This document shows positions 5,601 through 5,726 of a stretch of 64,000 nt of DNA, piece by piece. Under the pieces are notes generated by a model that worked only from the letters and a program-made list of their open reading frames with translations, did no database searches and was not told the origin of the DNA. How positions within the stretch are numbered: the first letter of the stretch is position 1; the number at the start of each line of letters is the position of its first letter. The translations under genes and the position numbers were made by a program. This stretch comes from Escherichia coli (GTDB lineage Bacteria; Pseudomonadota; Gammaproteobacteria; Enterobacterales; Enterobacteriaceae): NCBI RefSeq assembly GCF_030384885.1, contig NZ_CP128613.1. One strand, written 5' to 3'.

Positions 5601-5726
5601 TTCGAGTTGCAGGAAGTTGGTGACGCAGCGAATCCCCAGGAGCGTGCACGAGTACGTGACTGGGGTGAGCGAGGAAAACCAACGCACATGCAGCTTGAAG
5701 TATGACGGGTATTACGAGGTAAGAAC
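5601..5726. repeat. boxC-like intergenic repeat between wcaD and wcaE
   Basis: Sequence ...aatccccaggagcgtgcacgagtacgtgactggggtgagcgaggaaaaccaacgcacatgcagcttgaagtatgacgggtat resembles the dispersed E. coli boxC family as I recall it; not verified by search. Confidence 0.45.

Follow-up and report, generated by a model that had tools for sequence, protein, structure and literature searches.

An ERIC element, not a boxC repeat, at the wcaD-wcaE junction of the colanic acid operon in a minority of Escherichia coli genomes

ERIC elements, also named IRU or RU-1, were reportedly described by Sharples and Lloyd in 1990 and by Hulton et al. in 1991, and are said to have been surveyed by Wilson and Sharp in 2006. 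An ERIC is a MITE-like palindrome of 127 bp; boxC repeats measure about 50-56 bp and carry the motif CCCTCACCCTAACCCTCTCCCC...GGGGCGAGGGG. Copies of ERIC that are intragenic or that overlap a stop codon are already documented (PMC2759123). In Yersinia, ERICs lying over stop codons are associated with lower upstream transcript levels (De Gregorio, 2005, via PMC2229807, PMC10969869 and PMC3184786), and the mechanism proposed there is that ribosomes unmask an RNase E site located in the 3' inverted repeat. Another example is the REP/BIME family (e.g., malE-malF), in which an intercistronic palindrome within an operon mRNA can likewise determine stability, but REP units are only about 35-40 bp long and follow a different consensus, and REP protects upstream mRNA from 3' exonucleases, whereas stop-overlapping ERICs are reported to destabilize it.

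Here we describe an ERIC copy at the junction between wcaD and wcaE in the colanic acid (wca) operon, lying in a 64,000-nucleotide stretch of E. coli DNA (hereafter the window). Gene coordinates are those of the PGAP annotation of NZ_CP027579.1 (strain 2013C-4282), which is 100% identical to the window, and the four genes around the spacer (wcaC, wcaD, wcaE and wcaF) are all NCBIfam equivalog matches. The original prediction, made from the sequence, had pointed to a 126-bp spacer in an otherwise tightly packed operon. Indeed, the interval between the two PGAP genes is exactly 5601-5726; neighboring wca genes, by comparison, either overlap or are spaced by 2-26 bp. It had further linked intergenic repeats of this kind to mRNA stability, for which the Yersinia ERICs offer a precedent (PMC2229807). 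Taken as a whole, the evidence presented below makes it highly probable that the spacer arose by a single ERIC insertion, mainly tolerated as an immobile relic, with effects, if any, exerted at the RNA level. The features on which this account draws are the following:

4380-5600, + strand: wcaD, colanic acid polymerase (NCBIfam TIGR04010, 870.8 bits; PGAP)
5587-5713, + strand: full-length ERIC/IRU/RU-1 element (profile match and ungapped consensus alignment)
5590-5612, + strand: left arm, terminal inverted repeat, of the predicted lower stem (MFE pair list)
5619-5663, + strand: 45-bp segment deleted in the short allele (alignment of three full and four short alleles)
5634-5665, + strand: predicted apical hairpin, ERIC core CCCCAG..(loop)..CTGGGG (predicted fold)
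5687-5710, + strand: right arm of the predicted lower stem (MFE pair list)
5716-5719, + strand: Shine-Dalgarno (SD) sequence of wcaE, GAGG, 7 nt before the ATG and outside the hairpin
5727-6473, + strand: wcaE, colanic acid glycosyltransferase (NCBIfam TIGR04009, 515.4 bits; PGAP)

Profile HMMs were built from 19 published K-12 ERIC copies and from 22 boxC copies (PMC2267715, suppl. 70 and 69, respectively). The ERIC HMM (nhmmer) aligns its model positions 2-127 to 5588-5713 (+ strand), with 90.8 bits and E=2.9e-27, and no second credible ERIC match was found elsewhere in the 64-kb window. The spacer therefore does hold a dispersed intergenic repeat, as had been proposed, but not one of the boxC family to which the original prediction assigned it, since the boxC HMM yields no match. 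In agreement with the profile search, the 127-nt E. coli ERIC consensus given in PMC2759123 Table 1a, which is that of Wilson and Sharp reverse-complemented, shows a gapless alignment to 5587-5713, with 103 identical positions (~80% identity), and the orientation of the element relative to wca transcription is that of the Wilson and Sharp consensus. The ERIC core pattern occurs once in the window, with 0 occurrences expected by chance. The two ERIC-PCR primers, reportedly those of Versalovic et al., 1991, also have their sites here: ERIC2 matches 20/22 positions at 5650-5671, and the complement of ERIC1R matches 18/22 at 5628-5649. The likeness to the family thus extends over a gapless 127 nt and comprises the core GAATCCCCAGGAGC...GTGACTGGGGTGAGCG, the terminal inverted repeats, the TA ends, a long RNA stem-loop and many dispersed copies per genome. 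The element is an ERIC: every testable defining feature of the family was found in it, and the boxC profile did not match it.

Compared with other ERICs, the copy between wcaD and wcaE shows several peculiarities. Its identity is ~80% with the consensus and does not exceed 79% with any K-12 copy, and its loop-proximal sequence is GCGTGCACGAGTACGT rather than GCTTACATAAGTAAGT. Moreover, it is not strictly intergenic. The interval 5601-5726, originally given as the position of the repeat, is correct for the spacer itself but not for the limits of the element, whose true span (5587-5713) takes in the last 14 nt of wcaD and leaves 13 nt up to the wcaE ATG, so that the 3' end of wcaD, stop codon included, is provided by the element. 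The dispersed nature of the repeat, which had been put forward as a matter for a BLASTN copy count, was confirmed in this way: the sequence is multi-copy, with 10 places in the source genome at ~80% identity. When a 135-bp spacer query was run with blastn on complete E. coli genomes, 40,186 places were found in 5,425/5,426 genomes (median 8 per genome), another copy being that of the cusF-cusC spacer, and within the 64-kb window the element is single copy. The next-best E. coli copy among the 5,426 complete genomes is only ~82% identical to the wcaD-wcaE ERIC; with no closer copy, the insertion is either old or imported.

At this particular site, an ERIC is present in just 13% of the E. coli genomes. 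Occupancy was counted by megablast with a 151-bp query (5575-5725) on the 5,426 complete genomes, of which 723 (13%) carry the ERIC at wcaD, the megablast matches being always at this gene. The full-length element (at least 80% query coverage) is present in 94 genomes, and a short allele (72% query coverage) in about 629, including ST131/O25b:H4 strains such as EC958; K-12, O157:H7 and CFT073 have an empty site. The 45 bp lost from the short allele are delimited by two direct copies of GGTGA (5619-5623 and 5664-5668), and two deletion joints occur (AAGTT/GGTGAGC and AAGTG/GGTGAGC), a pattern that suggests either a recurrent loss of the palindrome tip or a later substitution. Both junctions of the element are identical in 7/7 occupied alleles aligned, and this identity indicates a single insertion event. 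The spacer thus varies between strains instead of belonging constantly to the operon, and the element rewrites the end of wcaD, two points that the original prediction did not mention. Independently of occupancy, 628 of the 5,426 complete genomes gave no megablast match to a longer, 1,131-bp wcaD-wcaE query.

That 1,131-bp query around the junction returned three allele sizes, examples of each of which were aligned. Relative to the empty alleles, the window contains 125 additional bp (5588-5712) between AAATAT and TACGAGG, and the empty site reads AAATAT/TACGAGGTAA in both K-12 W3110 and F344. Specifically, empty alleles read ..TTA AAT ATT ACG AGG TAA..ATG, with the SD of wcaE contained within the last wcaD codons (junction alignments), the wcaD stop directly after this GAGG and a spacer of 10 bp in K-12 W3110 or 4 bp in F344. 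TAT is present at both 5585-5587 and 5710-5712, so the insertion junction can slide by 3 nt and the exact dinucleotide is ambiguous. Comparison of occupied and empty alleles shows that this flanking TAT is compatible with a TA target duplication, and such a duplication is reported for ERIC (PMC2229807 Table 1). The difference between the two empty spacers corresponds to a 6-bp tandem duplication of TAAGAA in K-12 W3110 (699-708 of the extracted region), where the spacer measures 10 bp as against 4 bp both in F344 and in the right flank of the window. The wcaD-wcaE junction thus has a further, minor polymorphism in length.

In the occupied allele, the wcaD frame enters the ERIC for four codons and ends at the TAA located at 5598-5600 in the left arm, its last four codons and stop (5586-5600, ATA CAC CCT AAA TAA) lying at or inside the element. 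As a result, the WcaD C-terminus becomes ..LNIHPK instead of the ..LNITR of K-12. The ERIC consensus in the present orientation is closed in each of the three frames, the first stops being at nt 43, 71 and 12, and wcaD uses the one at nt 12; in the opposite orientation, two of the three frames are open across the 127 nt. The presence of stops in all frames offers a simple reason why the present orientation is tolerated at the 3' end of a gene. The ERIC copy accounts for the fact that, in some strains, wcaD is one codon longer and is separated from wcaE by a gap of 126 bp (or about 80 bp).

At the RNA level, the element is predicted to form a stable hairpin in the wca mRNA. For 5598-5729, the predicted fold of the sense strand reaches -51.2 kcal/mol (z=-6.3; 0/200 shuffles as good), compared with -26.8 kcal/mol (z=-0.6) for the antisense strand. 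Folded alone, the element reaches 40 predicted pairs and -57.7 kcal/mol on the mRNA strand against -37.0 kcal/mol on the antisense strand, a difference that arises because the G.U pairs of the mRNA strand (4/40) are A.C mismatches on the other. The same asymmetry is found in 18/19 K-12 ERIC copies (mean -55.7 vs -41.2). The wcaD stop at 5598-5600 is paired within the predicted lower stem, and the hairpin is closely followed on its 3' side by the SD (5716-5719) and the ATG of wcaE. The accessibility predicted for this SD is similar whether or not the element is present (0.35, 0.38 and 0.48), with no clear difference between alleles. In the short allele the lower stem is kept, with a predicted fold of -30.1 kcal/mol. 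Additionally, a motif scan identified GUAUU at 5709-5713, at the 3' end of the right arm, as the only RN/WUU-type motif in 5580-5730, RN/WUU being an RNase E-like motif reportedly described by Chao et al., 2017.

These observations are consistent with the following history. An ERIC would have inserted once at a TA within the last wcaD codons, in the lineage from which a minority of the wca haplotypes of E. coli descend, and its left arm would have provided a new stop after four codons, changing WcaD only from ..NITR to ..NIHPK. The wcaE ribosome-binding site would thereby have moved downstream of the wcaD stop, across a 126-nt spacer; translational coupling from wcaD to wcaE was probably lost, wcaE presumably initiating de novo. 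The ERIC is most likely cotranscribed within the wca mRNA, whose sense strand would form the 40-bp hairpin. Ribosomes terminating at 5598-5600 could then prevent the lower stem from closing, so that the right arm would stay single-stranded, and by analogy with the Yersinia ERICs the opened stem might expose this AU-containing arm to RNase E, whose cleavage would lower the wcaD-side transcript relative to the downstream one. As in the Yersinia enterocolitica cases (PMC2229807 and PMC10969869), an element of the same family lies at the 3' end of a gene within a polycistronic unit, with the stop codon in its left arm and an RNase E-like motif in its right arm. Stop-codon content would make its orientation equivalent to the Yersinia 'B' orientation, the one in which the upstream transcript is reportedly destabilized through RNase E once ribosomes have unfolded the element. 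In contrast to Yersinia, the host is E. coli, in which ERICs are few and apparently immobile. On balance, a measurable effect of the element on decay or translation is possible but rather doubtful, and the copy is better regarded as a largely neutral, tolerated and immobile MITE relic whose influence at the RNA level would be modest at most.

The alternative that survives best, although improbable, is that the ERIC was co-opted as an adaptive intra-operon regulator of the ratio between wza-wcaD and wcaE-wcaM or of the level of colanic acid, its hairpin serving in mRNA processing or stability. The element persists in 13% of genomes, successful lineages among them, it lies in its strongly folding orientation, the short alleles keep the right arm and the lower stem with the stop codon (the -30.1 kcal/mol fold given above), and Yersinia offers a precedent (PMC2229807). 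However, the apical 45 bp have been deleted, with two different joints, and among full-length alleles the substitutions at 5692 (A>C) and 5701 (T>C) break lower-stem pairs, none of them being compensatory. Internal deletions and non-compensatory substitutions together argue against selection on the structure. Furthermore, the wca-rfb neighborhood spreads by recombination, so that the frequency of the allele is not evidence of benefit and can equally reflect hitch-hiking. It is similarly improbable that the ERIC and its recurrently shortened derivative (in ST131 and others) are not neutral and, through the loss of coupling and a ribosome-sensitive hairpin with an RNase E site midway along the 20-kb wca transcript, alter the upstream:downstream ratio and the colanic acid output; if this were true, they would constitute a natural, MITE-borne regulatory allele segregating in E. 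coli. The site provides a natural three-allele series (empty, full ERIC and internally deleted ERIC) at a single position of a well-studied operon, which could be used to test the Yersinia-derived claim on stop-overlapping ERICs and mRNA decay, and the element is a simple marker of wca haplotypes. A literature search judged from titles and term counts found no paper on the wcaD-wcaE ERIC copy, and the value of the present result lies mainly in the correct annotation of the spacer as an ERIC copy and not a boxC repeat, with no challenge to current understanding.

Outgroups were sought by a protein-guided WcaE scan of species-representative genomes, and the matches listed included 18 other enterobacterial loci, from Citrobacter, Enterobacter, Kosakonia, Lelliottia, Yokenella, Pseudocitrobacter and Mangrovibacter, other Escherichia and Salmonella falling outside the comparison. 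Among these matches listed, the wcaD-wcaE junction is compact in 18/18 loci, none of the 18 junctions has an ERIC match, and many show the layout ..AATAT(T/C)(A/G)CGAGGTAA..ATG. Because all 18 outgroup junctions among the matches listed are compact and lack an ERIC, the comparison of sequences indicates that the compact, coupled junction is ancestral and the ERIC derived. The opposite polarity, with an ERIC ancestral at the site and precisely excised in most E. coli lineages, is very unlikely. It could draw on the differences in ERIC copies among E. coli strains for which Wilson and Sharp are cited (PMC10969869), and on the divergence of the full alleles among themselves (about 97% identity), which suggests that the insertion is not recent. 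Nevertheless, it conflicts with the compact outgroup layout, and one gain is a more parsimonious explanation than thousands of genomes in which excision restored the frame exactly.

Still less credible than an excision is the possibility that the hairpin acts as an intrinsic terminator or attenuator, or that the element carries its own promoter or a small-RNA gene. The hairpin is indeed very stable, and the element has a weak Rfam match (25.8 bits) to the Vibrio antisense RNA V_AS5, but this score is far below the cutoff of 96 and the V_AS5 consensus itself resembles an ERIC copy. Moreover, the stem is followed by UUACGAGGUAAG without any U-tract, as an intrinsic terminator would have, a scan found no promoter-like or terminator-like site inside the element (5587-5713) and no terminator-like site overlapping 5587-5726, and a terminator at this point would precede essential colanic acid genes located downstream in the wca operon. 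The weakest reading, that the spacer element is a boxC repeat (Bergler et al., 1992; Bachellier et al.), can be dismissed: although boxC is, like ERIC, a short dispersed E. coli intergenic repeat with G/C tracts, and one boxC member has in common with the element the 10-mer CTCACCCCAG (complement of CTGGGGTGAG), the longest word found in both the element and any boxC member, the two are unrelated in sequence and different in length, the CCCTCACCCTAACCCTCTCCCC..GGGGCGAGGGG motif is absent from the element, the 22-member profile has no match in the window, nor in 5500-5800 at E<=1000, and the ERIC HMM accounts for all 127 nt.

Several minor observations can be added. No curated Rfam family covers the element, the sole near-match, below threshold, being the Vibrio family mentioned above (RF02818, V_AS5, 'Vibrio RNA AS5', antisense), which aligns with 5586-5709 at E ~0.001-0.003, 96 being its gathering cutoff. 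The V_AS5 consensus aligns end to end with the ERIC copy, the common segments being GuuGCagg, GAaUuCC, GacuGggGuG and GCagCuuCaagu, and V_AS5 may therefore represent a transcribed Vibrio ERIC element. An open reading frame at 5617-5742 (41 aa, TTG start), which lies inside the palindrome and overlaps the start of wcaE, was considered mechanical and rejected as a gene.

Elsewhere in the wca region, wzb and wza of CFT073 (33192-34776 of the extracted region) are pseudogenes according to the RefSeq annotation, owing to an internal stop and a frameshift, respectively, and colanic acid export may be defective in this strain. Within the window, direct repeats of 72-77% identity lie ~13.45 kb apart at 10879-12116 and 24341-25560 (families D1, D4, D6 and D8); they look like the cpsB (colanic acid) and manC (O-antigen) paralogues, which are ordinary here. 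Finally, the window holds three tRNA-Asn(GTT) genes (54759-54862, 57167-57251 and 58972-59076; two of them on the - strand, the third on the + strand) within repeats of 85-104 nt that are 97-100% identical, in both direct and inverted arrangement, and that are potential substrates for inversion or deletion.
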